From Escherichia coli (GTDB taxonomy: Bacteria > Pseudomonadota > Gammaproteobacteria > Enterobacterales > Enterobacteriaceae), in NCBI RefSeq assembly GCF_030013595.1, contig NZ_CP122768.1: 64,000 nucleotides of DNA. One strand, written 5' to 3'. A program made the position numbers and the translations under genes. Below the pieces are notes generated by a model. The model was not told where the DNA came from. It did not search any database and worked only from the letters and a program-made list of their open reading frames with translations. Numbering within the stretch: position 1 is the stretch's first letter; the number at the start of each line of letters is the position of its first letter. Positions 1-16,383 of the stretch are shown piece after piece.

Positions 1-41
1 GAAGGGAGCCCGTCTTCAGGAATGGATGCCTGTCTTTTTCA

Positions 42-82
42 CTGTAAATATCCTGGCATTATTAATGTCAGGATATTTACAG
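42..82. repeat. Large palindrome/hairpin downstream of ykgG (14-bp perfect arms, 13-nt AT-rich spacer)
   Basis: CTGTAAATATCCTG (42-55) and CAGGATATTTACAG (69-82) are exact reverse complements. The spacer GCATTATTAATGT is itself nearly palindromic. Confidence 0.7.
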
Positions 83-186
83 AAGAGCAGCATAACCATG
101 ACGGAACGGGGTTAAGTCAGGTTGTCCTTAGCGCTATTCGCAACCTCGTGCCGCCTTCAGGTTTATGTCCAGACTTCATATCTCTC

Positions 187-882
187 TCAGCAATCCTCAA
201 TAATCAGATACACCGCTTTCACCGGACCATGAACCCCGACGACTTTGATAAGCTCAATATCCGCCGTTGAACTAGGGCCGCTAATGATGTTAATGCAGGA
301 CGGCATTCGTTCACCGGCCTGCGCTTTCTGATGCAATTTTTCTGCGAGTTGCGCTACACGCGGCAGGATTGTGCTTTTACGCAGGATAAAAAGAGAAGAT
401 TCCGGGAGCAGGCTCAATGAACGCCCGCGCTCGGCGGCGGAAAAAAGAACCACGCCTCCCGATTCGGTTAAACCATATTCAGCATACACGACACCCACTT
501 TAGCCTGCTCTGCCTGCGAGATATTCTCGGCACCTTTCGCCAGATCCCAAACAACGGCATTGCATTCCTGCTGCAAACGTTCGCTAATCCCCAATTCCTC
601 CAGCCTCGTGTCACCGCTAATCACGACCGACTGATCTCCCAGCTCTTTACACAGACGTATTGCAGCTTCTGCCGCCTTCGCCTCGCTGGTCAGCTCACAG
701 CGCGTCAACATAACATCGCTGGCAAACTGAATAAACGCGTCACAGCGCTGCTGTTGGTTAAGTGCGGTAAGCCGCTCGTTAGCATAGTTGTTAAGCGGCG
801 CATCTTCTGCTTGCGGTTCAAGTCGCAACGGGCGACCCAGTGCCTGAGCAACGTTATTCAAAAATTCGCTCCGATTATCCAT
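187..882 (-). CDS. ykgG: LutC/YkgG family protein (LUD domain, lactate-utilisation-like)
   Basis: 231-aa product from the ATG at 880-882 (MDNRSEFLNNVAQALGRPL...), which matches my recollection of E. coli YkgG. The 280-aa ORF-track version starts inside ykgF. There is an 8-nt overlap with the ykgF stop. Confidence 0.85.
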   Translation of the reverse strand: MDNRSEFLNNVAQALGRPLRLEPQAEDAPLNNYANERLTALNQQQRCDAFIQFASDVMLTRCELTSEAKAAEAAIRLCKELGDQSVVISGDTRLEELGISERLQQECNAVVWDLAKGAENISQAEQAKVGVVYAEYGLTESGGVVLFSAAERGRSLSLLPESSLFILRKSTILPRVAQLAEKLHQKAQAGERMPSCINIISGPSSTADIELIKVVGVHGPVKAVYLIIEDC

Positions 883-2302
883 TCTTTTTCTCCTGCGCCT
901 GATGTTTCTTAAACCAACTACGGAAACTCTCTCCGTCAGCTTCAGGAAGATCGCGTGCTTCCATCCAGTCGCTAATCGCGCCAAATTTGAGTGGTGTTTT
1001 GCCGCCATTGATAAACCAGCTTGCCGCATGAGCGCCGGCCATCATCCCGACTTTCCACAATCCTGGATGACTATTGGCATAAGCGAACATTTTTATCGCC
1101 CGTTGCTCTGCTTTTGCGGTGATCCCTTTTTCAGCCATCACCCGACGATGACGCAAAATCAGTTTTGACAGCGGAATACGCACCGGACACACGTTGTCAC
1201 AAGCAGTGCATAAAGAGCAGGCGTAGGGTAAATCTTTAAAATCTTTATAGCCGCCAAGTAGCGGAGAAATCACCGCACCAATTGGCCCTGGATAAATAGA
1301 GCCATATCCATGACCGCCAATATGGCGATATGCCGGACAAGTATTCATACAAGCCCCGCAGCGAATACAGCGCAGCACATCCCGAAATTCAGAGGCCAGC
1401 ACCTCAGAACGCCCGTTATCGACAATAACCAGATGAAACTCTTCAGGACCATCAACGTGCCCAGCTTCGCGCGGTCCTGTCAGCCAGGTGTTGTATCCCG
1501 TCAAACGTGCACCAACGGCACTGCGCGCCAGCATGGTGATCAATACATCTACCTCGGCAAACGTGGGAGCAATACGCTCCATTCCCATCACTGCAATATG
1601 CGTTTTAGGCAGCGTGGTACACATTCGCGCATTACCTTCATTGGTCACCAGGCATACCGAACCGGTCTCTGCCACCGCGAAATTACAGCCGGTAATACCT
1701 ATTTCAGCACTGAGGAAATCTTCGCGGATTTTTTGCCGAATGAATAAGGTCATTGCTTCAGGCGTTTCCGGCCCCTCATAGCCCAGACGTTCATGTAGCA
1801 CTCGACGGATCTGATGGCGATCTTTATGAATTGCCGGGACCACAACATGAGAGGGCGGATCTTGATCCAGCTGGAGAATGTATTCACCCAGATCGGTTTC
1901 AATCACCTGAATCCCAGCATCCTGCAACACATGATTGACACCAATCTCTTCGGTCACCATCGATTTAGATTTCACCACCTTCCGGGCATTTTTGCGTTGG
2001 GCAACCTGTAAAATATAGCGGGTGGCGTCTTCTTTGGTTTTTGCAAAATAGACGTGACCGCCGTTTTGCGTCACTTTTTCTGAGAGCTGGTACAGATAAG
2101 CGTCGAGATTACTCAGAACATGATCACGTATCTGGGCGGCCCGATCGCGCCACTCCTCCCAGTGCCCCAATTCATCGACCATTTTTTGCCGATTTGCCCC
2201 AATACGCTGCTGCGCGTTTGCCACCGCTTTGCGCATGATCGGATCTTCAATTTGCTGACGGATGCGTGTCTTAAAATCTGTATTACTGGTTTTGATCGAC
2301 AT
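875..2302 (-). CDS. ykgF: LutB/YkgF iron-sulfur oxidoreductase subunit
   Basis: 475 aa with two ferredoxin-type 4Fe-4S motifs (CIRCGACMNTCP and CSLCTACDNVCP). Sits in the ykgE-F-G operon context. Confidence 0.9.
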   Translation of the reverse strand: MSIKTSNTDFKTRIRQQIEDPIMRKAVANAQQRIGANRQKMVDELGHWEEWRDRAAQIRDHVLSNLDAYLYQLSEKVTQNGGHVYFAKTKEDATRYILQVAQRKNARKVVKSKSMVTEEIGVNHVLQDAGIQVIETDLGEYILQLDQDPPSHVVVPAIHKDRHQIRRVLHERLGYEGPETPEAMTLFIRQKIREDFLSAEIGITGCNFAVAETGSVCLVTNEGNARMCTTLPKTHIAVMGMERIAPTFAEVDVLITMLARSAVGARLTGYNTWLTGPREAGHVDGPEEFHLVIVDNGRSEVLASEFRDVLRCIRCGACMNTCPAYRHIGGHGYGSIYPGPIGAVISPLLGGYKDFKDLPYACSLCTACDNVCPVRIPLSKLILRHRRVMAEKGITAKAEQRAIKMFAYANSHPGLWKVGMMAGAHAASWFINGGKTPLKFGAISDWMEARDLPEADGESFRSWFKKHQAQEKKNG

Positions 2303-2312
2303 CTTTATATCC

Positions 2313-3032
2313 TCAGCGGCTCATCAACACTTCAGCAATATGCATCACTTTGACTTTCTGCCCTTCCCGTTGTAATCGCCCACTGATGTTCAGCAGGCAA
2401 CTCACGTCAGCACCAATTAAATACTCAGGGCGGACTTCCATCAGGTGCGCAACCTTTTCTTTCACCATCTCGCCGGATATTTCGGCCATTTTGACCGAGA
2501 ACGTGCCGCCAAATCCGCAGCAGGTATCCTGTTCAGCAAAGGTCAACAGCTCCAGTCCACGCACATTTTTCAGTAACGTAAGTGGCTCGTCCTTCACCCC
2601 CAGCTTACGGGCCAGGCTACAAGATGGGTGATACACCGCTCTCCCTTGCAAACTGGCACCTACATCGACTACCCCTAATGTATTAACAATAAAAGAGGTG
2701 AGATCCTGCATACGCGCGGCAACCTTTTCGGCACGTGATACCCATTCAGGTTCATCCGCCAGATACGTCGGGTAACTTTTTACGGCATAGGTGCAAGAGC
2801 CAGCCGGTGAAATAATGGGATCGTCGTTATCCTCCAGTGCGGCGATCAGATTTTTCATCCCTGGAATCGCTTCTTTGATATAACCACTATTGATCGCAGG
2901 CTGACCGCAGCATCCCTGTTTCTCCGGGAAATTTACGCGACAGCCGAGTTTTTCCAGTAGCAGCACGGAGTCTCGTGCCATTCTTGATTTCAGGGCGTCA
3001 CCAATACAGGTGACAAAGAAATTGACATTCAC
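2313..3032 (-). CDS. ykgE: LutA/YkgE Cys-rich (CCG-domain) oxidoreductase subunit
   Basis: 239 aa with CCG motifs (GCCGQPA, DTCCGFGG). First gene of the ykgEFG operon. Confidence 0.9.
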   Translation of the reverse strand: MNVNFFVTCIGDALKSRMARDSVLLLEKLGCRVNFPEKQGCCGQPAINSGYIKEAIPGMKNLIAALEDNDDPIISPAGSCTYAVKSYPTYLADEPEWVSRAEKVAARMQDLTSFIVNTLGVVDVGASLQGRAVYHPSCSLARKLGVKDEPLTLLKNVRGLELLTFAEQDTCCGFGGTFSVKMAEISGEMVKEKVAHLMEVRPEYLIGADVSCLLNISGRLQREGQKVKVMHIAEVLMSR

Positions 3033-3560
3033 AACTAATACTCCATTACTTCATGCCCATTTATGCCCGATGGTTCCCCCCTTCCGGGGGATCAATCATC
3101 AATAAATATGGCGTTCTTTTTTAATTGGCTAGCAACATACCACCCCTCATTTGTATGACAAATGATAATCTTTCATCCAAACTTCAAATGCAATAACTAA
3201 TTTTATTTCTTTCGGCATCGCTCACATTTTATAGGGAAATCGACGATCATTTTTGGCATAAGAAATCCATTTAAAAAGGCTACATCCCTTATACCTATTC
3301 AGTGCTACTTATTCAGGGGTTATTGAGATATACACTGATGGTGTACAAACAAAATCACCAACAATAATTACGTATCAAGTAATAATCGGCATTTTATTTA
3401 ATTGAAGCAATTTAGTTTGCATTTTTATTTAAAAACTGAGCTAGAGTCCATCAGAAAAAAAATATATAAAGCCCAAACCACCGTTGGAAATAGAAATAGT
3501 TGAAAGGCTCACAACTCCCGGAATGCGGATTATCTTTGCCCTGATTTCTGGCGGTTTTAT

Positions 3561-4415
3561 TCAGGGTGCAAGCTGTCTGACCCTTTCCCGATATTCTCCC
3601 GGAGTACAACCAAACTCGCGGACAAACGCCTTGTGAAAAGATGATTCACTGGCATAGCCTACTGACTCAGCGATCACCACAACAGGGAGCGTTTCCCGGG
3701 AAAACATCTGGGCCGCTATTTGTAGACGCAACTTTGTTAATACAGCTAGCGGCGTGGTTCCGGAAACATCACGGAAAAGCTGGGCAAAACTTGCCCGGGA
3801 CATGTGGGCGATGCTGGCCAGCGATTCGACGGTCCAGGCATGTCCTGGCATTTCCAGCATTTGCTGTATTACCGCACCAAGACGTGGATGCAGAAGCAAA
3901 CTGAGAATGTTTTTCTCTGTATTAACCTGTGCAATCCACTCACGCACCGCGAGGGTAAAGAATGTAGCGCAGATCTGGCTACACAGAGCATCCACTCCCG
4001 GCATTGCCGATCTGGATTCCTGTTGTAAAAACGGGATCGCCTCCCTCAGCCAGTTATATTCCACGCTATGGTTCACTGGTGCTACAAACAGCGTTTCCGG
4101 CAAAGACGTTAAAAAATAACGCGCCGAATGTTGCAGCCGAAGAGTGCCACAGACAATACAGGTCGATTCATTATCGACATGACTCAGGCGATGAGCTGAA
4201 TTTTGTGGTAGCAGGACCACATTTCCCGGGCGTAATGTAAAAATCTCTCCCGTCGGCATTTCCAGCTTCGCCGCTCCTTGCGTTAACGCATGCCAACGAA
4301 TAACCGACAATTCCCCGGCACCATGTGGAAGTTGCCAGTCACTTCCTAACACGCAATTCTTATCGATCGTTCCTTGTGGAGCGTTAAGCATCAACAAACG
4401 GCTAAGAGCATCCAT
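3561..4415 (-). CDS. rclR: AraC-family reactive-chlorine-responsive activator RclR (YkgD)
   Basis: 284 aa with a C-terminal AraC-type double HTH (..SRASFAQLFRDVSGTTPLAVLTKLRLQIAAQMF..GYASESSFHKAFVREFGCTPGEYR). Divergent from rclA. Confidence 0.9.
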   Translation of the reverse strand: MDALSRLLMLNAPQGTIDKNCVLGSDWQLPHGAGELSVIRWHALTQGAAKLEMPTGEIFTLRPGNVVLLPQNSAHRLSHVDNESTCIVCGTLRLQHSARYFLTSLPETLFVAPVNHSVEYNWLREAIPFLQQESRSAMPGVDALCSQICATFFTLAVREWIAQVNTEKNILSLLLHPRLGAVIQQMLEMPGHAWTVESLASIAHMSRASFAQLFRDVSGTTPLAVLTKLRLQIAAQMFSRETLPVVVIAESVGYASESSFHKAFVREFGCTPGEYRERVRQLAP

Positions 4416-4641
4416 ATCAGACTCCTGAGTAGTTTTTTAATTACAAACACCAACAATCTTAGTCAATAATTAATCTAATACCATCAAATAGTTAATCATG
4501 ATTTTTGTTTTGTGATTCTGATTAAGAAAAAGAAAATACCAGACGATAAGACAAAATATCAAGCGTTGTGAAGAAATGTTATGTGCTCTTTTGCGTCTAT
4601 AGTCATGATGTCAAATGAACGCGTTTCGACAGGAAATCATC

Positions 4642-5862
4642 ATGAATAAATATCAGGCAGTGATTATTGGTTTTGGCAAGGCTGGAAAAACATTAGCCGT
4701 CACGCTGGCAAAAGCAGGTTGGCGTGTGGCTCTCATCGAACAATCAAATGCAATGTATGGCGGGACCTGTATTAATATCGGCTGTATCCCAACCAAAACA
4801 TTGGTTCATGACGCACAGCAGCACACAGATTTTGTCCGTGCCATACAGCGTAAAAATGAAGTGGTTAATTTTTTACGTAATAAGAATTTTCATAATCTTG
4901 CGGATATGCCCAATATCGACGTGATCGACGGCCAGGCGGAGTTTATCAATAATCATAGCCTGCGTGTTCATCGGCCTGAGGGAAATCTGGAGATTCATGG
5001 CGAGAAAATTTTTATTAATACCGGTGCACAAACCGTGGTTCCGCCAATTCCTGGAATTACCACCACGCCTGGTGTATATGACAGCACCGGATTACTTAAT
5101 CTAAAAGAATTGCCTGGGCATTTAGGTATTTTGGGCGGCGGATATATTGGCGTTGAGTTCGCCTCTATGTTCGCTAATTTTGGCAGCAAGGTAACCATTT
5201 TAGAAGCAGCTTCGCTGTTTTTGCCTCGGGAAGATCGGGATATTGCTGATAATATCGCGACGATTTTACGCGATCAGGGCGTCGATATTATCCTCAATGC
5301 CCATGTGGAGCGAATCAGTCACCATGAAAATCAAGTGCAAGTGCATAGCGAGCACGCCCAACTGGCGGTGGATGCACTGTTAATAGCTTCCGGTCGTCAA
5401 CCAGCTACCGCTTCGTTACATCCAGAAAATGCCGGTATCGCAGTAAACGAGCGCGGGGCAATTGTCGTTGACAAGCGATTACATACCACCGCAGACAATA
5501 TTTGGGCGATGGGAGATGTTACCGGCGGGCTGCAATTTACTTACATATCACTAGATGATTACCGCATTGTACGTGATGAGTTACTGGGTGAAGGCAAACG
5601 TAGTACTGATGATCGGAAAAATGTGCCTTATTCCGTATTTATGACACCGCCCCTGTCCAGGGTTGGTATGACAGAAGAACAAGCCAGAGAGAGTGGTGCT
5701 GATATTCAGGTGGTGACATTGCCTGTAGCTGCAATTCCGCGCGCCAGAGTGATGAACGATACCCGTGGGGTATTAAAAGCGATTGTTGATAATAAAACCC
5801 AACGTATATTAGGGGCATCACTGCTGTGTGTTGACACGAGAGTATTCAAAACACGCCAATAA
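4642..5862 (+). pseudogene. rclA: rclA (ykgC) 5' portion, truncated by island insertion; 398 native codons plus 8 foreign codons (TRVFKTRQ*)
   Basis: MNKYQAVIIGFGKAGK (FAD-binding GxGxxG) and the GGTCINIGCIPTK redox-disulfide motif. The native sequence ends at ..GASLLCVD (5834). The remaining 42 codons are found at 16583-16711. Confidence 0.9.
5835..5841. repeat. Left junction direct repeat (attL core candidate) CACGAGA
   Basis: The identical 7-mer recurs at 16583-16589, exactly where the rclA reading frame resumes. A TATTCAA motif lies adjacent (5843-5849). Confidence 0.6.
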
Positions 5863-5903
5863 CCTCTTGATTCAATTGAAGTCGAAAATTTTAAGTCAAA
5901 AAT

Positions 5904-5929
5904 CGTATAGCTTAACGTGTAGCTAAAAA
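5904..5929 (+). repeat. Island-internal arm repeat, left copy (CGTATAGCTTAACGTGTAGCTAAAAA)
   Basis: Near-identical (1 mismatch) direct repeat of 16432-16457. Contains a palindromic TAGCTA hexamer (5920-5925). Confidence 0.7.
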
Positions 5930-5987
5930 TGTTTGCTGCAAAAGTATACAATTTTAACCGTTATGACTCCCTGTTATCCGTTATCAA

Positions 5988-6156
5988 GCTGGTGGATGAT
6001 CATGGATAACCCGTTATGGGAATCCCCATATCGGCATCAGGCCCATGCCATAACAAAAACCCCATATTCGTGGGTTTTCTGTGTTGTGGCTATTCTGCCG
6101 TTGCCGTGCTGGTGGATATTTCCGGTATGTGGCTCACCATATCGGCATCACGCCCA
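5988..6156 (+). repeat. Imperfect ~120-bp tandem duplication upstream of the cos-like site
   Basis: GCTGGTGGAT occurs at 5988-5997 and 6108-6117. CCATATCGGCATCA(G/C)GCCCA occurs at 6026-6045 and 6137-6156 (19/20 identical). Confidence 0.65.
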
Positions 6157-6201
6157 CCAGCGCGACGCATTTTTTTAATTTCGCGGGTGTAAAAATTTGA
6201 C

Positions 6202-6216
6202 GGGGCGGGCGGTCCT
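6202..6216 (+). other. Candidate lambdoid cosN-like site (GGGGCGGGCGGTCCT)
   Basis: TTGACG|GGGGCGGGCGGTCCT resembles the lambda cohesive-end region TTACG|GGGCGGCGACCT (recalled). It is flanked by the repeat A(T)TTTCCG(G)TATGTGGCT at 6118-6134 and 6262-6278, and by a GGGAT-UUCG-ATCCC hairpin at 6234-6247. Confidence 0.45.
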
Positions 6217-6479
6217 ATAAGCAATGGGGGGTAGGGATTTCGATCCCCCCTCCTGAATGCAATTTTCCGTATGTGGCTGTGCGGCAATCATACTCGTCAC
6301 ATGTTTTTGACAATAAAAGGCCCGACCGTGAGACTCACAAACAAAAAAGTTACGGAGAAACAGGGGATCGGGCTCGGTTGCCGCTAAATCTATTCAATTA
6401 AAAGAAGATGTCAATAGGGAAAACGAAAAAAAACAATGCTGATATTGTCATAATTTGAACAAAACCACTATATGTAGTT

Positions 6480-6710
6480 TTAGTTCATGAGGTTAGTCGC
6501 TACCAGATGCGTCAATAGTTTTTTGCTATTAATAATCCCTCTTTTTCCATCGGGAGCTTTGCACTTGTCACTACCTGGTAACTCCTGGTGGCGTTCCTGT
6601 TGCAGCACAACGGAAACAGGCGCTGAACACCTGTTAATTTTGCTTGCAGGTTGTTTGATTTCGGCAATGCTGCGGATCATCTCCAGCATATCGGCTTCGG
6701 TGATGGTCAT
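6480..6710 (-). CDS. Hypothetical 76-aa protein (last gene of the satellite late block)
   Basis: ATG preceded by AAGGTG 7 nt upstream on the minus strand. No family recognised. Confidence 0.5.
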   Translation of the reverse strand: MTITEADMLEMIRSIAEIKQPASKINRCSAPVSVVLQQERHQELPGSDKCKAPDGKRGIINSKKLLTHLVATNLMN

Positions 6711-6717
6711 GATTTAC

Positions 6718-6994
6718 ACCTTAGGAAATCTTAGGGGCTGGTTGACACTTTCCGGCTTAAGACCTTAACAAATCTTAACATCGCAGGTTGACACACTTGA
6801 CACTTTTTCGCGAAAAACCTTATCAAACCTTAGCATTTCTAAGCATGGCAACTTGACACTTTTCGCGATTTTTTCGGCTTTTTGACGTGGTAAATCTGGC
6901 GCAAAGCCAGTAACGGCGGGGTTTACAGCGAGGTTGACACTTTTTCGCGTTCAGAGTGTAAAGTGTCAACCTGGCAAGCTGCTCAACTTGACAC
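6718..6994. repeat. Iteron array: TTGACAC repeats interleaved with paired ACCTTA/ATCTTA half-sites
   Basis: TTGACAC at 6742, 6788, 6797, 6853, 6934 and 6988. Variant TTGACGT at 6882. Inverted copy at 6963-6969. Three A(C/T)CTTA pairs with 10-bp spacing at 6718/6728, 6762/6772 and 6817/6827. Confidence 0.85.
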
Positions 6995-7003
6995 TTTTTG
7001 AGG

Positions 7004-7531
7004 TCATTGATGGCCTGATTTTTCCCACTCAGCCAGGGCGTTTAGTCCGGCTTCACTCCAGTTATCCAGCTCATCGGGACAATCACCTGCAACATAGCAG
7101 AGCTCACAACGCAGCATACGAATTGCCAGCCTGGCATTTTCCCGAAAATCATACTGCTCAAAGTAATATTGCCCAGCATAATCCTCAAGGCAGATAGCAC
7201 CATCATCAAGAAATTGCACTTCACAGCATAGTTCCCCGGCTGCATCCTGTACACGCTGCTGTATGTCATTGTCCGTTACTGGTGCAGGGATTTTACCGTC
7301 TCTGGCCTTAACTGCTTTCCAGAACTCGCCCCACGTCATTTCCAGCGTTCTCTCTGGCCACATTTCAGAAACGGTATCTTTTCCCTGTGCTGGTGGGCTG
7401 TTCCGCTGCTCTGTCGCTTCCACATCGATTTTTTTACCGGACATGACCACTTCGCCTTTCTCGATCCAGTCGTAAACTGTCTGGCGGCTTACGCCTTTGT
7501 GTTTGGCATATTCTGCCTTGCTCATAAACAT
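7004..7531 (-). CDS. Nu1/TerS-like N-terminal HTH protein (candidate small terminase or packaging-redirection factor)
   Basis: The N-terminus MSKAEYAKHKGVSRQTVYDWIEKGEVVMSGKKI parallels the lambda Nu1 winged-HTH (MEVNKKQLADIFGASIRTIQNWQEQGMPV, recalled). GAGGGGA RBS. The gene abuts the TTGACAC array. Confidence 0.5.
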   Translation of the reverse strand: MFMSKAEYAKHKGVSRQTVYDWIEKGEVVMSGKKIDVEATEQRNSPPAQGKDTVSEMWPERTLEMTWGEFWKAVKARDGKIPAPVTDNDIQQRVQDAAGELCCEVQFLDDGAICLEDYAGQYYFEQYDFRENARLAIRMLRCELCYVAGDCPDELDNWSEAGLNALAEWEKSGHQ

Positions 7532-7701
7532 GACACTTCCCCTCAGACTGTATTAATGCGCCGGAAAGCGCGTGTATTTAAATCATCCCAGGAACCGTTG
7601 AGCACCAATTAGTTGCGCGAAGTAATCGGCACCAGCGTTCCGAACAATTTCCAACTTAACGTTCTGATCATTGTTTCCTGCTGCAGGGACAATCCCACGA
7701 T

Positions 7702-8355
7702 TCATAGCCAGCGCCCGGATATTTCTTCCAGTTTTTCCAGAGCTGGCTTGCAGGCCGCATCAATAACTTCACGGACCATTCCGGCGAGCTGTTCTTCTTC
7801 TGTCGGCGTTGTTACTTCCACACCTGATGGTTTCCCGCCCTTATCCCATACGCCCAACGGTACGAGCGCAACGTGATCGATAAGAAATGGCGTACCCTCA
7901 ATGAAAAAATTGTCCTCGCCCATTACATCAGGAACTTCTGCCCCACCGGACGCACCACAAAACACAACCGACGGGCTGGTGGATACCTCCCCCCGTGCTT
8001 TCTGGATGTAATCGATGATTTCCTGCCCGTAAATCCGGCATACGCCCCACACCTCGTCACCGCGAATATACGGCAACATGACGGTGCCAATAATGCGCGA
8101 CCGTTCGCCCACGTCTTCAAGGGTTTTGCTTTCGGGATGGTCGATAATGACGGGTACTCCGGCGCAACGTTCCAGGAACTGCGGATTGAGATAAGTTTGC
8201 GGTGAACGCCAGACAAATTCTTTTTCTTCGGCGCGATAGGCCATTCCGGTTCCTGTGATACGCAGGTTAATCAGCCACATGTTGGAAAACTGATAAGGCG
8301 ACGGTAGCTGACCGTCCCGAATCTGCTTTGCCGCCTCAATTTCTGTTAAAAGCAT
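7702..8355 (-). CDS. Putative prohead protease/scaffold-like protein (GPO / DUF2213-like)
   Basis: 217 aa. Segment order VIIDHPE .. IGTVMLPYIRGDEVWGVCRI .. VSTSPSV .. LIDHVALVPLGVWD parallels P2 gpO (RINLEH .. KWALFAKI .. VYTSMEI .. YLVGLAVTDDPA, recalled). The similarity is weak. Confidence 0.35.
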   Translation of the reverse strand: MLLTEIEAAKQIRDGQLPSPYQFSNMWLINLRITGTGMAYRAEEKEFVWRSPQTYLNPQFLERCAGVPVIIDHPESKTLEDVGERSRIIGTVMLPYIRGDEVWGVCRIYGQEIIDYIQKARGEVSTSPSVVFCGASGGAEVPDVMGEDNFFIEGTPFLIDHVALVPLGVWDKGGKPSGVEVTTPTEEEQLAGMVREVIDAACKPALEKLEEISGRWL

Positions 8356-8419
8356 AATGTCCCCCGGTTATAAGCAATAAGCCCCACCAAATCCGGCAGG
8401 GCTGAAATCAGCACGTTTT

Positions 8420-9004
8420 TCATGCCCCCGCGAGGCTTGCAACGTTAATTTTAACCAGGCGACGGGGAGGGATTTTGAAAGCACTAAGCCAGTTATTCGG
8501 ATCCCCCTGATATTCAGTAATCCGCCGTCCGGCTTCATCCATTCTTACGGTTTTACGCAAATAGCCCGGCGTATTTTCCACAGCCCACTGAACACTGTCT
8601 TTTGCAGCCTGGTAAATCTGATCTTCCAGCACCGCCAGCGTTGCAGAATCTGAAACGGAACGAATATCCACATCACTGAATTTTTTAGCCAGCTTCTGTG
8701 CACCAATTAATGCACGCTTGCGGTAATCCATCGACTTTTCACCAGCAAACGGGGCTGGAGCGCGACGGCCCATATTGCTGTATGCGGAATCCGCTTTAGC
8801 CTGGGCTTCTGCCAGTGAGGATTCATCTTCGACTGACGCGACGATGTTTTTATTCGCGTCATCCTCGTCCGCTTTTGTGAAATCCTGTGCGGGGATCGCA
8901 TTCAGAATTTCGATAATCTCCTGCGGAGTGCTGCCCTGCGACTCTGACAGAGCGTTAACCACCTCCATCAGTTTTAATCGCAAATCTTCTTTGCTTGCTG
9001 GCAT
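8420..9004 (-). CDS. Hypothetical 194-aa protein with acidic/helical N-half (possible scaffold or capsid-size factor)
   Basis: ATG at 9002-9004 with an AGGTGG RBS (the ORF-track GTG start lies 9 nt upstream). Located between the protease-like gene and a small RBS-bearing ORF. No family recognised. Confidence 0.5.
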   Translation of the reverse strand: MPASKEDLRLKLMEVVNALSESQGSTPQEIIEILNAIPAQDFTKADEDDANKNIVASVEDESSLAEAQAKADSAYSNMGRRAPAPFAGEKSMDYRKRALIGAQKLAKKFSDVDIRSVSDSATLAVLEDQIYQAAKDSVQWAVENTPGYLRKTVRMDEAGRRITEYQGDPNNWLSAFKIPPRRLVKINVASLAGA

Positions 9005-9043
9005 TTTTACCACCTCTCTTTTTTCACCAAAAAATCACGACCA

Positions 9044-9223
9044 TCAGGCCGGACGTTCTACGGGATAAAGCGCCCGCTGCATTAAACGCCGGGCGACCTC
9101 ATGAATGCTCGGAGCAATCCCCAGCGGAGAATTGCGGCGTTCCTCGTCCTGGATGCGCTGTAATGCTTCAATCTGATCACGAGCGAGTAAAACGGGTTTC
9201 ACGCTGGCTTTTCTCATAGTCAT
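9044..9223 (-). CDS. Hypothetical 59-aa protein
   Basis: MTMRKASVKPVLLARDQIEALQRIQ... The start at 9221-9223 is preceded by AGGAG 5 nt upstream. First ORF after the bidirectional terminator region. Confidence 0.45.
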   Translation of the reverse strand: MTMRKASVKPVLLARDQIEALQRIQDEERRNSPLGIAPSIHEVARRLMQRALYPVERPA

Positions 9224-9352
9224 ATCTCCTGAACAAAACAATGATTATGATTGCACAAACTGAAATAACGATCTACATCATTGCAATTTATGAAACAATA
9301 ACGCATGATGATCGCGTTCTTCCCATTGACTTCAATCACCTGAAAAACAAAG

Positions 9353-9381
9353 CCCGCAACACTTCTGGCTGCGGGTTTTTT
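9353..9381 (+). terminator. Intrinsic terminator on the + strand with no convincing + strand gene upstream
   Basis: CCCGCA (9353-9358) pairs with TGCGGG (9370-9375), followed by TTTTTT. Confidence 0.5.
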
Positions 9382-9389
9382 ACTGGCAC

Positions 9390-9413
9390 AAAAAAGCCGG
9401 GAAAAATCCCGGC
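9390..9413 (-). terminator. Intrinsic terminator after the PerC-like gene
   Basis: GCCGGGA (9396-9402) pairs with TCCCGGC (9407-9413). On the minus strand the hairpin is followed by a T6 run (A-run at 9390-9395 on +). Confidence 0.65.
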
Positions 9414-9418
9414 CTCCG

Positions 9419-9706
9419 TCACTGACTGCAATTTTTCGATCCAGGGTATTTCCTGAATGCCTTACCATTGGGCTGATGTAATCCCATCCCGGCATGTGCC
9501 CGGCTGATGGTTTCGCGCATTTCCCCGAAATTATCCTGCCTTGCTGGTGGGCGTGCTGCCTTGCGGATACATTCCGCGCGACGTTTTGCCGCCTGTTCCC
9601 GTGCCTTGTCATCATTCGCCAGCATGATGACCTCAGCCCACCGCGCCGCCGCTCTCCGGTACAGACCACGCGCTTCCAGTGCTTCCGCTTTGCTGTCGTG
9701 AATCAT
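9419..9706 (-). CDS. PerC/Pch-like small transcriptional activator
   Basis: 95 aa. The N-terminal motif KAEALEARGLYRRAAARWAEV fits the LE.xG.xRRAA.RW signature I recall for the PerC family. ATGA overlap with the upstream ProQ-like gene. Confidence 0.5.
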   Translation of the reverse strand: MIHDSKAEALEARGLYRRAAARWAEVIMLANDDKAREQAAKRRAECIRKAARPPARQDNFGEMRETISRAHAGMGLHQPNGKAFRKYPGSKNCSQ

Positions 9707-10245
9707 GCGCCTGTTTTCTCCTTTGCTGCCCGGCGCTGACGTTTGCGCTTCTCATTCAGCGCCACCAGCCGCGTTTCTGCGTCCTGTTGTTCCTGTGGTG
9801 TCACCTCGCCGCACGGCTGGCCTTTCAGGTCGTAGCGTACCCCACCAGCCATTAAGGCGCGGTAATAGCGCGGACACTGCGCATAAGATGCCAGCGTCGC
9901 ACGCAATGCCCCTGGACCGAATGCCAGCCCCCTGACGGCGAGATCCTGCATCAGGTCGTCGAATATCCCCACCTTAAGCGGCTTCGGTGCTTCCCGGCTG
10001 AATAATTCAGGCCACAACTCAGTGAGGCGGTTAACGCGCCTGCGGTTTTTGCGCTGGCGTTTGGTCATATGCCGCCACGGTGTCGCCCCTGTGGGCTTCT
10101 GCTGCGCTTTCTGGTTACCGGGCATCACTTTATGCGCCGATGTGGTTTTATCCTGCTCCTGCGCCGCCTGCGTCGTTTTCTGCGGCGTGCCGTAAATGCC
10201 TTTCGGTTTTCTGTTAATGGTCAGCTTAGTCATGCTTTGCCCCAT
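9703..10245 (-). CDS. ProQ/FinO-domain RNA-binding protein
   Basis: LTELWPELFSREAPKPLKVGIFDDLMQDL...ALRATLASYAQCPRYYRALMAGGVRYDLKGQPCGEVTPQE aligns residue-for-residue in pattern with the ProQ N-terminal domain (FPHCFS..RPLKIGIFQDL..LRSALRLYTSSWRYL..RVDLDGNPCGEL, recalled). Confidence 0.75.
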   Translation of the reverse strand: MGQSMTKLTINRKPKGIYGTPQKTTQAAQEQDKTTSAHKVMPGNQKAQQKPTGATPWRHMTKRQRKNRRRVNRLTELWPELFSREAPKPLKVGIFDDLMQDLAVRGLAFGPGALRATLASYAQCPRYYRALMAGGVRYDLKGQPCGEVTPQEQQDAETRLVALNEKRKRQRRAAKEKTGA

Positions 10246-10326
10246 CGTTTTTACTGGTTGCTACGTTGCCCAACGGCACTGACACAACATTCTGTTTTCA
10301 TTTTTAACATTCCTGATTTTTTAATT

Positions 10327-10708
10327 CCTCACCTGCTGCACAGTGAAAATTTATGAAGTTAATAACAATATGATTTTAAATGTATTTTTAAGTACTCACT
10401 TTTTAATCCTTATATATACGCAAAAGTGAGGTAAATAGTTAAGTTTTAGTTAATATCTTGCATGGTGTGTTTTTTAACCTACCTGTTATTTTTATTACCT
10501 CATTTCTATTAACTCACCATTCCTCACTTTTGTTCCTCACTTTTTATTATTCTTGTTCTGCTCCTCAGTCGTTTTCTTTATTGTTGTAATCTGTTGTTTT
10601 GCAATGTGTTTTTAACTCCTCACTTTTTGACCTATATACAGGTGAGAAAGTGAGGAGTGGCGTTGATTTTTTGTTAAATTACCCGCCATCCTCACTTTTG
10701 CTCCTCAC
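10327..10708. repeat. Replication-origin iterons (CCTCAC(T)TTT) in AT-rich DNA directly 3' of the replicase gene
   Basis: CCTCAC at 10327, 10522, 10535, 10618, 10690 and 10703. Inverted GTGAGG at about 10426 and at 10650. Variants ACTCAC (10394) and CCTCAT (~10498). Long T/A tracts lie between them. Confidence 0.8.
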
Positions 10709-10711
10709 TTT

Positions 10712-12127
10712 TTACAGTGGGCGCACATAATCACCGTCAATAGCGATTACGCCGTCGCTTTCCAGCTTGTACAGCCAGCGCCGGAAGTTTTTCATTTCAT
10801 ACCCCAGCTTTTTCATATCATCGCGGAGAAGGGCGATAGTGCACGCCTCCCCGTGTGCTGTTCGCGTTCTGATGCACTGCCATAGCGCAGCGTGATTTTC
10901 CGTCTTGTTCCCGGCCTCCTCGATGCGTTCCAGTTCAACAGGTGGGCGCGGCTTATCCACAACCACCAGCGACGTGATTAACTCCCCGTCAGTGTCGGTA
11001 AAAAGCTCCACCACGCGTAAATCATATGCAGCCTCTTTCAGTTCCTCCGCGTCCTTCATTTTGGTGCAGGAGATAACCAGGGCTTCACTGTCCGCACCTT
11101 CACGGCGAATACGGTATTCAGCGTCCAGAGATGCACGAAATGCACTGGAACCACGCGCCCCTTTTGTTTCATCCTTGCCGGAATGGTGAACCACCAGTAC
11201 CGTGGCCCCTGTGCGTCGTTTCAGTTCGTCACATCCACGGATAAACGCCCCCATATCCCGCGCGTCATTTTCATCATTACCGCCAAAGCAACGCGCCAGC
11301 GTATCCAGAATAATCATGCGTACCGGTTTACCCGTTTCCCGTTCAACCTGACGGGAAGCGATGACCATTTCATCAACATCAAGCGGGACCGCCGGAAAAA
11401 TCGGGCGGTTTACCAGGTACAGATTTTTCACCCGTTCATCATTAACGATTTCCCATGCTTTGATACGACGAGGAACACCGATCCCGCCCTCACCAACGAC
11501 ATACATAACCGCACCATGTACAACCCTGCGACCTCCCCAGTGGCGACCAGTGGCAACATGACACGCCCAGGAACACGCGAGGAACGATTTATAGGAACCG
11601 CTCGCGCCGTATGTGCTGCACAACGAATTAGCCGGAATCACGCCCTTAACGACATAATCAAGCTGTGTGTCGTATCCTGCAGATCCAATACTCATTGGTA
11701 GCGTGGTTTTTCGCTGGCTGTATTGCTCGTCAGTAAGTATTTCCCCGCGCTCTGCCTGTTCGCGGATCCGTTGCAGGTAGTCGTGCCAGTTCTCCAGCTT
11801 CTGGCTGTGCATTCCCTCAGGGTAATAATTCGCATCCCGTACACCTGCCGCCGCCAGTTTTTGCCCGATGGCATTAATATTTGACGGCTTGATGTGGCCT
11901 GCCTTGTACAGCCGGACACAATAGCGACCATCGTCGATAATTTTCAGGTCTGCCAGTTCGTCAAGCTGGCTGTCTCCCAGCCATACAGGCGGAACATTGT
12001 CGCCAGCAAGTCGCCCGTCCTGTTCCTGCCATTGTTTCGCGTGCGCCCAGGCATCACTACCCGCAAAAATAATGACTTCGGTCATTTTGTCGTGTGGCTG
12101 TTTTTTTAAGTTCGGTGCCAGTTTCAT
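10712..12127 (-). CDS. Satellite replicase: RepA/AAA_25-type (RecA-fold) ATPase with N-terminal primase-like region and C-terminal wHTH
   Basis: 471 aa. Walker A YGASGSYKS, Walker B MIILDTLARCFGG, and VLVVHHSGKDETKGARGSSA (DnaB/RepA-like motif). Iterons follow the stop codon. Confidence 0.75.
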   Translation of the reverse strand: MKLAPNLKKQPHDKMTEVIIFAGSDAWAHAKQWQEQDGRLAGDNVPPVWLGDSQLDELADLKIIDDGRYCVRLYKAGHIKPSNINAIGQKLAAAGVRDANYYPEGMHSQKLENWHDYLQRIREQAERGEILTDEQYSQRKTTLPMSIGSAGYDTQLDYVVKGVIPANSLCSTYGASGSYKSFLACSWACHVATGRHWGGRRVVHGAVMYVVGEGGIGVPRRIKAWEIVNDERVKNLYLVNRPIFPAVPLDVDEMVIASRQVERETGKPVRMIILDTLARCFGGNDENDARDMGAFIRGCDELKRRTGATVLVVHHSGKDETKGARGSSAFRASLDAEYRIRREGADSEALVISCTKMKDAEELKEAAYDLRVVELFTDTDGELITSLVVVDKPRPPVELERIEEAGNKTENHAALWQCIRTRTAHGEACTIALLRDDMKKLGYEMKNFRRWLYKLESDGVIAIDGDYVRPL

Positions 12128-12423
12128 TTTGTGCCCCTGAATGCGTTAATCATGTTTTTCATTTTCTGAATATTTGCCCGTGCCTTTGCGTTGCTGGTGG
12201 GCTGTTTGCGTGGTGTGGCCTGTATCAGTGAAAAATCACGCCGGAACTGATAAACAGGCATCACGCAGTCGTAGCTGTACCCATCACGGCGGTAAGTAAC
12301 GCACCGTCCGGCAATACTTTTAATCGTTACCGTGCCGCCGTAGTTATCCCGGAAAATATCGCCGGGGCGGATTTCAGGCCGAGGGAGACCACTGGCAGTA
12401 AAGCCAGAATTTTTCTTTTTCAT
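12124..12423 (-). CDS. Small conserved protein (DUF4222-like)
   Basis: 99 aa. IRPGDIFRDNYGGTVTIKSIAGRCVTYRRDGYSYDCVMPVYQFRRDF resembles DUF4222 proteins of P4-like prophages (recalled). ATGA overlap with the replicase. Confidence 0.45.
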   Translation of the reverse strand: MKKKNSGFTASGLPRPEIRPGDIFRDNYGGTVTIKSIAGRCVTYRRDGYSYDCVMPVYQFRRDFSLIQATPRKQPTSNAKARANIQKMKNMINAFRGTK

Positions 12424-12427
12424 GGTT

Positions 12428-12628
12428 TTATTTTCCTGTCAGCAGTTCCGGTTTTATTTCCGCACGAATACAGAGTTCAGAAAAAAATTCAGGAGAACCA
12501 ACAATCTCATTACTTTTCAGTCGGCATTGTGATTTCACTTTCCCTTTATCCAGGTAAACCAGTATGCGTCCGGTGAAATCATCTGGCACACTCAGGGTAA
12601 TTGTCATTGTTGCTTGCTGATTATCCAT
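12428..12628 (-). CDS. Hypothetical 66-aa protein, one copy of a ~45-aa DxFTG module
   Basis: VPDDFTGRILVYLDKGKVKSQCRLKSNEIVGSPEFFSELCIRAEI. 8-nt overlap with the upstream gene. Confidence 0.55.
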   Translation of the reverse strand: MDNQQATMTITLSVPDDFTGRILVYLDKGKVKSQCRLKSNEIVGSPEFFSELCIRAEIKPELLTGK

Positions 12629-12986
12629 GATTCACCCCCTGAATAACCTGATAACCGCAACTGGTCAGCAATTCGATAAATTCCGGCAGTGTTCCGAAAC
12701 AGCAATCATCTCGCAGCCGTTCTCGGGATACTTCAACGCCGTTTTCGTAGTGACTCACCATGCGTCCGGTAAAATGCAGATCATCATCGTGATGGCTCGT
12801 TAACGGCTTAATCAGTCGCGCACGTTCTGCCAGCTCCAGCAATGCTTCAACGCTTCCGGCAATTGCACCATCCGGCAGGTGATAATTACTTGCCACGCGT
12901 CCATTCTCCACGTTAACCAGTAGCTGCCCGGTGAATTTCTCATCAAACTGAATGCTGTTAAGGTCAGAAATTGACAGGTTAATCAT
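12621..12986 (-). CDS. Hypothetical 121-aa protein, two copies of the same DxFTG module
   Basis: FDEKFTGQLLVNVENGRVASNYHLPDGAIAGSVEALLELAERARL and DDDLHFTGRMVSHYENGVEVSRERLRDDCCFGTLPEFIELLTSCGY. 8-nt overlaps on both sides. Confidence 0.55.
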   Translation of the reverse strand: MINLSISDLNSIQFDEKFTGQLLVNVENGRVASNYHLPDGAIAGSVEALLELAERARLIKPLTSHHDDDLHFTGRMVSHYENGVEVSRERLRDDCCFGTLPEFIELLTSCGYQVIQGVNHG

Positions 12987-13344
12987 GGCGTACCTCCTGG
13001 CGAATACGGGCAGCGAATACCATCACGCAGCCATCAGGAGATTGCTGGCGTGCTTCCTGTTCGCTGGTGGCCACGATGTGAATCACGCGCGGTTGTGCGG
13101 TGCTCAGGGCGATAAAACGCCAGATAAAATTGTTTTCGCATTTCTGAATAAACAGCGTGTTTTCTTCGCGCCCTTTCCATGTTGCCGAGATATAGCCCAT
13201 GCCATTGAGCATCTCGCAGGCATCAACCAGCGTATCAGCGGCTACGTGTACAGTGTTTTTACCGTCAGCTATGCAATCACGGTGCACCGCCAGGAAGGTG
13301 TATATAAATTTAGGGTGAGTTTGGGTATGCTGTGTTCCAGCCAT
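12979..13344 (-). CDS. Icd-like (host cell division inhibitor-like) protein
   Basis: 121 aa from the ATG at 13342-13344 (GAGGT RBS): MAGTQHTQTHPKFIYTFLAVHRD ... NNFIWRFIALSTAQPRVIHIVATSEQEARQQSP..VFAARIRQE. This is the FIW.F.A / SE.EAR signature of Icd-like proteins (recalled). It is the only credible part of the 478-aa ORF. Confidence 0.55.
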   Translation of the reverse strand: MAGTQHTQTHPKFIYTFLAVHRDCIADGKNTVHVAADTLVDACEMLNGMGYISATWKGREENTLFIQKCENNFIWRFIALSTAQPRVIHIVATSEQEARQQSPDGCVMVFAARIRQEVRHD

Positions 13345-13446
13345 AATCGTTACCTCATTTAACGGTTTGGTTAGAAGCCCCGTTACTGCTCCAACAGTGC
13401 GGGGCTTCGTCGTTTCAATTGCTGAATTGCATGTATCAGCCCTTGT

Positions 13447-13499
13447 GGTATTCAGATTACATTTTGGTGAATACCATTTCAAGTCTTTTTTGGTATTCA
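13447..13499. promoter_or_regulatory. Operator-like repeats in the divergent region between the Icd-like operon and the RHH gene
   Basis: GGTATTCA (13447-13454), inverted TGAATACC (13468-13475), and GGTATTCA again (13492-13499). A 9-bp-stem hairpin GAAGCCCCG..CGGGGCTTC lies at about 13373-13407. Confidence 0.45.
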
Positions 13500-13543
13500 C
13501 TTTTGTATTACACTGCATCCCGTTATTAATCGGAGGTGCAAAC

Positions 13544-13849
13544 ATGTCCACGAGTTCTGTTAACAATAAGTCACAGCAACTGAATGCCAGATTTCCACAT
13601 GAAGTAGTGAGTGGCATTGAGGCATCCCTACAGCCAGGGGAAACTAAAGCGAATTTTATAGTTACGGCTGTACGCGGTGAGATCGCCCGCCGCCAGGCAG
13701 AAGGAAGCGGAGAAAACCCCCTGGTTTCTTCGCTCGATGCGCTGGCGCAGGTGGAAAAAATCGGAGTCAAAGCTGCCGAGGAGATCGGGCAGCTCGTCAC
13801 CGTCGCACGTGAAGAACTCCAGCGCCGCAAGGCCAAAGAATCAGAATAA
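13544..13849 (+). CDS. YlcI/YnfO-family (DUF3950, ribbon-helix-helix-like) protein, candidate island regulator
   Basis: 101 aa from the ATG at 13544 (GGAGG RBS 7 nt upstream). KSQQLNARFPHEVVSGIEASL..KANFIVTAVRGEI resembles K-12 YlcI (NIRFPNQMIEQINIAL..GNFSAWVIEAC, recalled). It is one of very few + strand genes in the island. Confidence 0.6.
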   Translation: MSTSSVNNKSQQLNARFPHEVVSGIEASLQPGETKANFIVTAVRGEIARRQAEGSGENPLVSSLDALAQVEKIGVKAAEEIGQLVTVAREELQRRKAKESE

Positions 13850-13906
13850 TAACTATCATCGCCGTGGTGTGAGGAACTCCGGCGCATTGCTTTACAGGTA
13901 CACAGA

Positions 13907-14107
13907 ATGACCAACAAAGAATCAACCAAAACACCATCACCAACCCGGAAGAGACGTCGCAAAAATATGACGCACGAGCATGAATCAGACAGATTCGCGC
14001 CGTGTGCGTTTGTCCTTGAGACGTTCCTTAAAGAGTACAGGCGCACAAAATTAGGGCCACATACCTGGAAAACATCGCGACATAGCGATATTAAAGAGCA
14101 GGAATAG
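13907..14107 (+). CDS. Possible basic 66-aa protein
   Basis: ORF only. Weak RBS, Lys/Arg-rich N-terminus, lies upstream of the + strand terminator. Confidence 0.25.
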   Translation: MTNKESTKTPSPTRKRRRKNMTHEHESDRFAPCAFVLETFLKEYRRTKLGPHTWKTSRHSDIKEQE

Positions 14108-14216
14108 CCCACCAGCAAGTCAGCATATTCACCATAATGACCCTCGGTTAAACCTAGAGTCATTGGTGCAAACCTGACACATTGCCCACCAGCCAGCAAA
14201 TCGCTATGATATTTGG

Positions 14217-14268
14217 GCTTATGTTTAGTGTTTTCCCATTGGCGACCGCCCCCGGTCGCCTTTGTTTT
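14217..14268 (+). ncRNA. Candidate ~50-nt small RNA (promoter plus strong terminator, no ORF)
   Basis: TTGCCC (14182-14187), a 17-nt spacer, then TATGAT (14205-14210). The terminator has GGCGACCG (14241-14248) pairing with CGGTCGCC (14253-14260), a CCCC loop, and TTTGTTTT. Confidence 0.3.
14241..14268 (+). terminator. Strong intrinsic terminator ending + strand transcription before alpA
   Basis: 8-bp GC-rich stem, 4-nt loop, U-tract. Confidence 0.75.
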
Positions 14269-14364
14269 GCCCGTTATCCGGCAATTGTGGCGCTTCGCCA
14301 CACGGTTGATATAATTCCCCTGCACTGATCCATTTTTTTCGCAGCAGGTTAATTGTTCGCAAGG

Positions 14365-14389
14365 GCGCTCCGGCAACGGGGCGCTTTTT
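14365..14389 (+). terminator. Second + strand intrinsic terminator
   Basis: GCGCTCC (14365-14371) pairs with GGGGCGC (14378-14384; one G-U pair), followed by TTTTT. Confidence 0.5.
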
Positions 14390-14419
14390 GTTATGTTCAT
14401 CGCGTTACGCCTCACACCA

Positions 14420-14626
14420 TTACGCAGCCGTTCCGCGCGCTTCTTCCTCGCGCTCTTTCAGCCAGGCCAGCACTTCATCTTCATACCAGCCAACACGACG
14501 CAGACCGATTTTGAAGCCTTTCGGGAATTTTCCGGCGTTGATCATGTCCTGTAGCGAACTGTCTGCCTTGATGCGCAGAATATTTTTTACTTCCTGACGG
14601 GTAAGTATTTTTCTGATTGTTTCCAC
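14420..14626 (-). CDS. alpA: AlpA-family transcriptional regulator / excisionase-like HTH protein
   Basis: 68 aa. ILTRQEVKNILRIKADSSLQDMINAGKFPKGFKIGLRRVGWYEDEVLAWL is the typical AlpA/CP4-57 regulatory motif. Confidence 0.85.
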   Translation of the reverse strand: METIRKILTRQEVKNILRIKADSSLQDMINAGKFPKGFKIGLRRVGWYEDEVLAWLKEREEEARGTAA

Positions 14627-14697
14627 TATGTTTTACCTCGTTAATCCGGCGTATTCCGGTGATAAATACGGTAAAACAGGGCAGGGCGGGAAAAACA

Positions 14698-14731: not shown

Positions 14732-14760
14732 TATCTCATTGATTACGCTTTTCTTTCTGC

Positions 14761-14791: not shown

Positions 14792-14795
14792 GTGA

Positions 14796-16366: not shown

Positions 16367-16383
16367 GTTTTTTTACCCATCGG

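Follow-up and report, generated by a model that had tools for sequence, protein, structure and literature searches.

In the cos-type Staphylococcus aureus pathogenicity islands (SaPIs) such as SaPIbov5, for which phi12 and phiSLT serve as helper phages, the island carries the helper's cohesive-end site (cos) and lacks a terminase of its own, and packaging of phi12 and phiSLT requires the small terminase TerS, the large terminase TerL and an HNH endonuclease, according to the account of Quiles-Puchalt 2014 given in PMC6092414. In the Escherichia coli phage-inducible chromosomal island (PICI) EcCICFT073, the cos site consists of the cosQ and cosN of lambda and a divergent cosB, which is read by a heterocomplex of Rpp and TerS (Nu1) (PMC6739421; PMC9026076). 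The present analysis concerns a putative cos site in a 64-kb stretch of E. coli DNA (hereafter the window), situated near the left end of a satellite-type island of 10,752 bp at ~5842-16593. A first-pass annotation of the window had described this site as a lambda-like cos candidate, framed by repeats, which mimics but differs from the cos of its helper. Sites of the lambda class have 12-nt 5' overhangs, the order cosQ-cosN-cosB and the small terminase Nu1, whereas those of the class that comprises phiP27, SfV/SfI and phiE125 have 10-nt 3' overhangs, the order HNH-cos-terS and a small terminase of the Terminase_4 family. It is to the latter class that the site in the window belongs and, with a probability of about 0.75, the region 6172-6253 is the packaging site of a phage satellite that copies the cos of the phiP27 family.

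The cos core and its cohesive end

Positions 6172-6215 of the window (TTTTTAATTTCGCGGGTGTAAAAATTTGACGGGGCGGGCGGTCC) and the cos region annotated in the Stx2e phage phiP27 are identical at 44 of 44 bp. When phage genomes were searched with BLAST, a single strong match, with the phiP27 cos-site, was obtained, extending over 82 bp (85.7% identity, E = 6e-14). The 10-nt cohesive-end sequence GGGGCGGGCG (cosN, 6202-6211, + strand) equals the 'cos-site' feature of phiP27, which is located at 21806-21815 of entry AJ298298. On the basis of this identity, cuts are predicted at 6201/6202 on the - strand and at 6211/6212 on the + strand, which would leave a 3' overhang. The core occurs once in the 64-kb window, with no second copy.

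The predicted cut position coincides with phage ends that have been mapped. For the Burkholderia phages phi1026b and phiE125, the first base of the GenBank record corresponds to 6201. Phages phi644-2 and phiE125 have 10-base 3' single-stranded extensions, 3'-GCGGGCGAAG-5' and 5'-CGCCCGCTTC-3' (PMC2920897), and the published extension (GAAGCGGGCG) aligns with 6202-6211. For the Shigella phage SfI a 10-nt cos, TGCCCGCCCC, was obtained by direct sequencing of the virion DNA ends, the corresponding sequence in SfV being AGCCCGCCCC (PMC3636060); the reverse complement of the cosN in the window, CGCCCGCCCC, is identical to the SfI cos at nine of the ten positions. By a pattern scan, 65 viral contigs and 4 genomes were found to contain the core. 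Alignment of 14 representatives, comprising satellites, E. coli phages, a Salmonella locus and Burkholderia phages, shows invariant blocks with the sequences TTTCGCGGG (6179-6187), T..AAAA.T.GA (6190-6200), GCGGGC (6205-6210) and GT.C.

The lambda-like character attributed to the site by the first-pass annotation was derived from the string GGGGCGGGCGGTCCT, which is indeed present at 6202-6216, and the proposal of a cos site at the terminus of a satellite-type island, with a cohesive end starting at 6202, is supported by both the phiP27 match and the island junction. The resemblance to lambda cosN, however, reduces to an exact 9-mer, ACGGGGCGG. Alignment to the 350-bp lambda cos junction yields a score of 18, which is reached by 72% of random 201-bp pieces of the window; when compared with cosN ± 10 bp only, 7% of random window pieces align as well. 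Apart from the 9-mer, the lambda cosN GGGCGGCGACCT with its flanking symmetry is absent from the site, where neither cosQ, R sites or the PICI R3 at fixed spacing nor further local similarity to the 350-bp junction was found, and the only match to lambda cosN within two mismatches in the island, at 14814-14825, lies inside a coding region without a cos context. The string ATTTTCCG, which had been noted as part of the lambda left end, does occur there, but is only an 8-mer. These two strings, together with the Nu1-family proteins encoded by some sister satellites, are what favours a lambda-type cos of the 12-nt 5' overhang class, which would imitate a lambdoid cosN and, as in EcCICFT073, serve a Nu1/gpA terminase of the lambdoid type. 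Such a site is highly improbable, since alignment with the lambda junction does no better than chance and cosQ and R sites are absent, the cos1 and cos2 sites of EcCICFT073, in which lambda cosQ and cosN are preserved with hardly a change, bear no resemblance to the region studied here, the exact 44-bp match to phiP27 fully explains the G-rich string, and no Rpp homologue was found when the 175-aa protein encoded near cos (see below) was compared by sequence and fold.

The terminase-proximal side of the core

The terminase-proximal, cosB-like part of the core (TTTTTAATTTCGCGGGTGTAAAAATTTGAC, 6172-6201, - strand), at +30 to +1 from the cut, is identical to phiP27 at 30 of 30 positions. The core as a whole thus does not differ from the cos of the presumed helper type, contrary to what had been proposed. 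The block TTTCGCGGG is located at +23 to +15 from the 6201/6202 cut, is invariant from E. coli to Burkholderia, and adjoins an A/T tract at +24 to +30. The same layout is observed at the left end of HK97, of which the small terminase binds +15 to +29, where the G:C pair at position 21 is critical and the A-tract at 24-29 essential (PMC11331095); the start of terS is at +50 in HK97 versus +45 in phiP27. Homology between HK97 gp1 and the P27 TerS is unsupported, with no Pfam family for gp1 and no PDB match for the phiP27 protein L35, and the comparison with HK97 is therefore a positional analogy only.

In phiP27, cos separates L34, which encodes an HNH endonuclease, from L35, behind which come the genes for the large terminase, portal and prohead protease; this is the HK97-type packaging arrangement, and the head and packaging modules of the helper-type phages are HK97-like. 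L35 belongs to the P27 family of small terminases (PF05119, TIGR01558, phrog_83). In phages of the L080 type the phiP27 HNH gene and right flank are kept, but these phages have another terS allele and a wholly different sequence left of cosN. In the L083 variant, +1 to +13 are kept and +15 to +29 are changed together with terS. As the left flank changes with the terS allele, the left core appears to carry the specificity for the small terminase, and judged from these sequences 6172-6201 is likely the binding site for a P27-family small terminase.

Organization of the island

The placement of the site at an island terminus, as given in the first-pass annotation, is confirmed by the left junction at 5835-5841, where a copy of the att core CACGAGA is located in the 3' end of rclA, as established by junction comparison with the tRNA-Pro attL and attR of locus L002. 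The right att copy (core CACGAGA(G)) ends at 16593, and the predicted cos cut is 360 bp from the left end of the island at 5842. Over 5835-16593 the island is collinear with an island of strain ETEC6335, with 97-99% identity for most of its length, which is inserted in the 3' end of tRNA-Pro, beside yejM. The rclA junction itself is also present in ETEC6335, as well as in U90 and Z1323CEC0010, and the near-identical islands at two ETEC6335 sites point to recent mobility.

The island contains int (15125-16366), a gene for AlpA (14420-14626) and a gene for an AAA_25/RepA-type helicase (10712-12127); its other products include DUF4222 and phrog_340 proteins, ProQ/FinO and PerC. All genes point leftwards, which is the direction in which packaging would start. 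In the island no terminase, HNH, capsid, tail or lysis genes were found, and the phage arrangement, in which cos is flanked by HNH and by terS-terL, is not present. As neither HNH nor terminase genes are provided in cis, the site is regarded as a satellite copy rather than as the site of a phage or prophage. The layout corresponds to that of Gram-negative PICIs, which measure ~10-15 kb, have int and the packaging site at opposite ends, encode AlpA and a replication module, and are devoid of lysis and tail genes. Of the set that characterizes capsid-forming PICIs (cf-PICIs), i.e. capsid, portal, protease, HNH, TerS and TerL, none was found in the island except for a weak match to DUF2213 and head-protease-like proteins. 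The ORFs (open reading frames) concerned are 7702-8355 and 8420-9013 (- strand), which match the N- and C-terminal parts of a single 545-aa family, phrog_6216; ORF 7702-8355 also matches DUF2213 and, weakly, the head maturation protease phrog_530. From these matches the two ORFs could encode capsid-remodelling or scaffold-like satellite proteins.

A repeat with the sequence CGTATAGCTTAACGTGTAGCTAAAAA (5904-5929, + strand, and again at 16432-16457 near the end of int) is a probable integrase arm-type site of attP and is not part of cos. Elements with the sequence GTAGCTA / CGTATAGCTnAACGTGTAGCTAAAAA are present near both island ends, and also at 16376-16410; these, too, are likely integrase arm-type sites of attP. 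The gene rclA, for a reactive chlorine resistance oxidoreductase (4615-5862 and 16594-16710), is interrupted ~32 codons before its end, the remainder resuming at 16594. The secondary att site in rclA, GTTGACACGAGAT, resembles the 3' end of tRNA-Pro, GTCGGCACGAGAG.

The flanks of the core

The right, HNH-side flank (6212-6253, + strand) is partly conserved with phiP27. It comprises GTCC, AGGGATTT and a C-rich CCCCTCC, and includes a hairpin at 6226-6250; related phages keep AGGGATTT and CCCCTCC to the right of cosN, but not the hairpin stem. The hairpin, with GGGAT-TTCG-ATCCC at 6234-6247 within G and C runs, had been noted as very stable. The string is present as described, but the DNA fold of -7.2 kcal/mol (z = -0.8 to -0.9) is equalled by 35-42 of 200 dinucleotide shuffles, and its stability is ordinary for a stretch so rich in G and C runs. 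An Rfam scan of 1-20000 (E ≤ 1) and a tRNA scan gave no match at the cos site, so that the hairpin is not explained by a known RNA or tRNA fragment. A stem formed by GCTGGTGG...CCACCAGC was considered as a conserved structure and rejected, as its 5' arm is missing from L028, L049 and L078. Further to the right, the + strand of 6262-6278 contains the right copy of ATTTTCCGTATGTGGCT, where other satellites carry AATTTTTCGTATATATAT, and the block in common with the ETEC6335 island extends to 6283. The segment that follows the cos block immediately on the right, 6284-6581 (298 bp), is wholly different from the 540 bp found at this place in the otherwise ~99% identical ETEC6335 tRNA-Pro island. The Burkholderia phage loci L004-L073 contain an inverted repeat 5-25 bp right of cosN, followed by a T-run, which maintains its pairing by compensatory changes (GGAGGCGACACCTCC, GAAGGCAGCGCCTTC, GAGGGCCGCGCCCTC) and which in L004 has a DNA fold with z = -4.4; at this place the satellites carry CCCATAAGCAATGGG.

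The left flank consists of repeated units. The strings on which the supposed frame of the cos site was based were all retrieved, i.e. GCTGGTGGAT at 5988 and 6108, CCATATCGGCATCA(G/C)GCCCA at 6026 and 6137, and A(T)TTTCCG(G)TATGTGGCT at 6118-6134 and 6262-6278. Repeat D1 (35 nt, 6011-6045 and 6122-6156, 83% identity, spacing 111) was reached by 0 of 200 shuffles and repeat D3 (17 nt, 6118-6134 and 6262-6278, 88% identity, spacing 144) by 0.5%, while D2, which includes GCTGGTGGAT (20 nt, 80%, spacing 120), was reached by 7.5% of the shuffles and is not significant alone. Tandem Repeats Finder detected no tandem array in the repeat region. Of the imperfect ~120-bp tandem duplication proposed earlier the repeat pairs are retained, but their spacings are 120 and 111 and the intervening sequences differ; the unequal spacings and the differing sequence between the blocks indicate a patchy duplication rather than a clean 120-bp tandem repeat.

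Within this flank a distal unit (5978-6045, + strand; GCTGGTGGAT ... CCATATCGGCATCAGGCCCA) contains members of repeat families D1 and D2 and, at 6015-6030, the near-palindrome TATGGGAATCCCCATA. Comparison with relatives reveals an extra, lineage-specific segment of 111 bp (6040-6150, + strand), from which the second copies of GCTGGTGGAT and CCATATCGGCATCA and the left copy of ATTTCCGGTATGTGGCT (6118-6134) derive, and in which a terminator scan identified a terminator-like hairpin at 6061-6074. This segment is present in the window and in L002, L077, L097 and L118, and absent from L081 (strain STEC276), L113, L049, L028/L042, L078 and L005. In the sister satellites without the segment, a single flank unit abuts directly on the cos core, reading ...GCTGGTGGATGATCACGGATAACCCGTTATGGGAATCCCCATATCGGCATCAYGCCCACCAGCG... 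At the end of the proximal unit (6098-6165, + strand) stands the motif CCATATCGGCATCACGCCCACCAGC, which does not vary among satellites and is missing from phages. As the repeats derive from a segment that is missing in sister satellites with the same cos, they do not frame the site; by this sequence comparison the 'frame' is a lineage-specific mosaic and not a feature of cos. Neither the repeats nor the hairpin are needed for the packaging model.

The absence of a credible ORF from the region agrees with the RefSeq annotation, in which most of the homologous places are without a feature. The left flank may nevertheless encode a small gene, as is suggested by a + strand ORF of 81 aa (5933-6178) with repeated SPYRH(Q/H)AH and several differences among relatives at third codon positions; in one relative this ORF is frameshifted, and in SfV-type versions it is read through.

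A candidate DNA-binding protein and possible redirection of the terminase

The second ORF inward from cos (7004-7531, - strand) encodes a protein of 175 aa with an N-terminal winged helix of the Xis/MerR type and a C-terminal domain; between this gene and cos lies a 76-aa ORF (6480-6710). The 175-aa protein matches Pfam HTH_17 weakly and phrog_57 over residues 1-42. Its AlphaFold2 model has a predicted local distance difference test score (pLDDT) of 88.8, and in Foldseek the best match is Pukovnik Xis, with a probability of 0.98. The N-terminal domain resembles excisionase/BldC-type winged helices, and for the C-terminal alpha/beta domain Foldseek returned no PDB match. The family is confined to Enterobacterales, where it is annotated as hypothetical throughout, and it is unrelated to the Nu1-like proteins of the sister satellites. 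From the modelled fold, the protein may be regarded as a candidate excisionase or a DNA-binding accessory factor of the cos region. Its assignment as an Rpp homologue was rejected, as it has no PDB sequence match to RppC and its fold matches only winged helix-turn-helix (wHTH) domains of the Xis/BldC type.

The 25-bp motif CCATATCGGCATCA-N-GCCCACCAGC is found in all satellite versions of the flank, is absent from phages, and is duplicated in the window island. A metagenome scan located it upstream of at least four different modules, including a P27-type core, an SfI/SfV/e14-type core and two without a G-rich cos. This distribution bears on an alternative in which the cos is used, but a satellite factor such as the 175-aa protein redirects the helper terminase via the motif and/or the palindrome at 6015-6030, equivalent to an Rpp-like strategy applied to a terminase of the HNH type. 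Such a factor would find in the invariant motif a satellite-specific site on the terminase-binding side of cosN, the second ORF from cos has a wHTH of the Xis/MerR type, which is the fold class of the DNA-binding domains of Nu1 and Rpp, and Rpp itself is a precedent (PMC6739421). Redirection is nonetheless unlikely, because the TerS-side core is already identical to that of the phage and does not require it, the 111-bp insertion gives the island in the window a spacing between motif and cosN that differs from that of sister satellites, at least four unrelated modules are found downstream of the motif, and the 175-aa protein, which matches Rpp neither in sequence nor in fold, could be no more than an excisionase. 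A wider proposal, likewise unlikely, is that the PICI-like satellites of E. coli exchange helper-matched cos cores in one terminal cassette, the 25-bp motif being bound by a satellite factor through which HNH-dependent terminases would come to favour satellite DNA. If true, this would constitute Rpp-like redirection for a terminase class in which none is known.

Distribution of the core and its probable use by the island

Of the 5426 complete E. coli genomes, 739 contain parts of the satellite module. In STEC276 a phiP27-type terS-cos-HNH prophage coexists with a satellite with the same core (L081). Other sister satellites, including most of the relatives, instead carry a core of the SfI/SfV/e14 type, TTTCGCGGGTATAAAAAATCGATGGGGC(G/T)GGCAGTCC, which is one base off the phage version; the phage version accounts for 117 of the 121 matches listed in viral contigs, these 117 contigs being of the phage type, and the flank of the SfI/SfV-type core contains the published SfI primer cos-R (PMC3636060). 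The metagenome scan yielded no contig that ends at cosN; the L084 contig ends 54 nt after the 25-bp motif, but has a different downstream module. The satellites L077/L079 (E. coli HZDC01), L076 and L081 (STEC276) encode Nu1-family, lambda-type small-terminase-like proteins next to cos cores of the P27 or SfV type, and L079 in addition encodes homologues of major capsid and head-decoration proteins, an unexpected mix of packaging lineages.

The assignment of 6172-6253 as a packaging site of the phiP27 type has to be weighed against several points. Cutting and packaging in vivo, the helper phage and the packaged form are all deduced from sequence. The putative TerS site is assigned by position and conservation only. 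The right flank is only partly phage-like, and its differences could matter if the phage needs that side for termination. Full terS-cos-HNH modules of the phiP27 type occur in only 18 of the 5426 complete genomes, and no P27-type helper is located within the window. The latter point, and the mosaicism around cos, which shows frequent recombination, would also be in line with an inactive relic, i.e. a piece of a P27-type cos gained passively by recombination in an island that moves otherwise or not at all. A relic is quite improbable, however, as the core is perfect (44/44) while both flanks diverge, and as several satellite lineages, integrated at different att sites, have it at the same terminal place, with near-identical island copies at two chromosomal sites. 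Moreover, parallel satellites have a core of the SfV/SfI type in the equivalent place, and such parallel core types at one position argue for selection for a matching helper. What the comparison itself shows is the sequence identity with the phage site, the positional equivalence to mapped ends, the co-variation of the left core with terS, and the island context.

Proposed packaging mechanism

Direct mimicry of the helper cos is the most economical reading, as neither a terminase of the satellite nor a redirecting factor is needed. In this model, induction of a P27-type helper would be accompanied by excision and replication of the island and the formation of concatemers. The helper small terminase (Terminase_4 / P27 family) would then bind to 6172-6201, most likely via TTTCGCGGG and the A/T tract at +15 to +30, after which the large terminase and the HNH endonuclease of the helper would cut at 6201/6202 and 6211/6212, generating 10-nt 3' ends with the sequence GGGGCGGGCG. 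Packaging would run leftwards from the cut and pass attP and int before the remainder of the island, until the next cos is reached; relative to the circular form, int would thus enter first and the genes close to cos last.

Four island units amount to 43.0 kb, which corresponds to 101% of the phiP27 genome (42,575 bp), making the packaging of multimers in full-size heads possible, as has been proposed for EcCICFT073 (PMC6092414). This tetramer arithmetic fails for the SfV-type relatives and is given as a note only. Alternatively, monomers could be packaged in small capsids, with the help of the protease-like genes.

Comparison with known systems

In the literature searched, of which the coverage is incomplete, no description was found of a P27/SfV-type cos in E. 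coli satellites, the known E. coli sites being of the lambda type only. The functional kind of the site is known, and within this literature it is the helper family that has not previously been linked to E. coli islands. The findings point to a second, common class of helpers for these islands, i.e. the HNH-dependent phages of the P27 and SfV/e14 types, including a Shiga-toxin 2e phage. The identity with phiP27 provides an exact prediction of the cut site and a likely binding site for the P27-family TerS. In addition, the core may serve as a sequence marker for which prophage can mobilise which island, a point that bears on how accessory genes spread in porcine enterotoxigenic and Shiga toxin-producing E. 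coli (ETEC and STEC).

With phiP27 and the P27-family prophages the island has 44 bp in common, including the 10-nt cohesive end and 30 bp on the terS side, and in the right flank AGGGATTT and CCCCTCC. In phiP27 cos is bordered by the HNH gene on one side and on the other by terS, whose start codon is 45 bp from the cut, whereas the island lacks both genes and has, on the terS side, attL and a flank that is non-coding and specific to satellites. The phages of the SfI/SfV/e14 type and the Burkholderia phages phiE125, phi1026b and phi644-2 have the same architecture (TTTCGCGGG ... AAAA.T.GA ... GCGGGC), with mapped ends that coincide with 6201/6202, but differ from the window by 1-3 bases in the overhang and by 3-6 in +1 to +14, and are probably served by other terS alleles.

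PICIs of the EcCICFT073 type are similar to the island in int, alpA, the replication module, the location of cos at the far end, the host species and approximate size. Unlike EcCICFT073, the window island has a site of the P27 type, in which the terminase-side core is unchanged, and no Rpp was found in the island. In P4, with P2 as its helper, a cos essentially identical to that of the helper is used directly without a satellite terminase, as proposed for the island, although the P4/P2 system has 19-nt 5' ends, the sid/psu/delta/alpha gene set and a defined capsid-size factor. SaPIbov5 remodels capsids via the capsid homologue Ccm, whereas the only candidates for such a role in the island are the DUF2213/phrog_6216 proteins. 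Despite its Gram-positive host and unrelated sequence, SaPIbov5 is the nearest functional parallel to the island described here.

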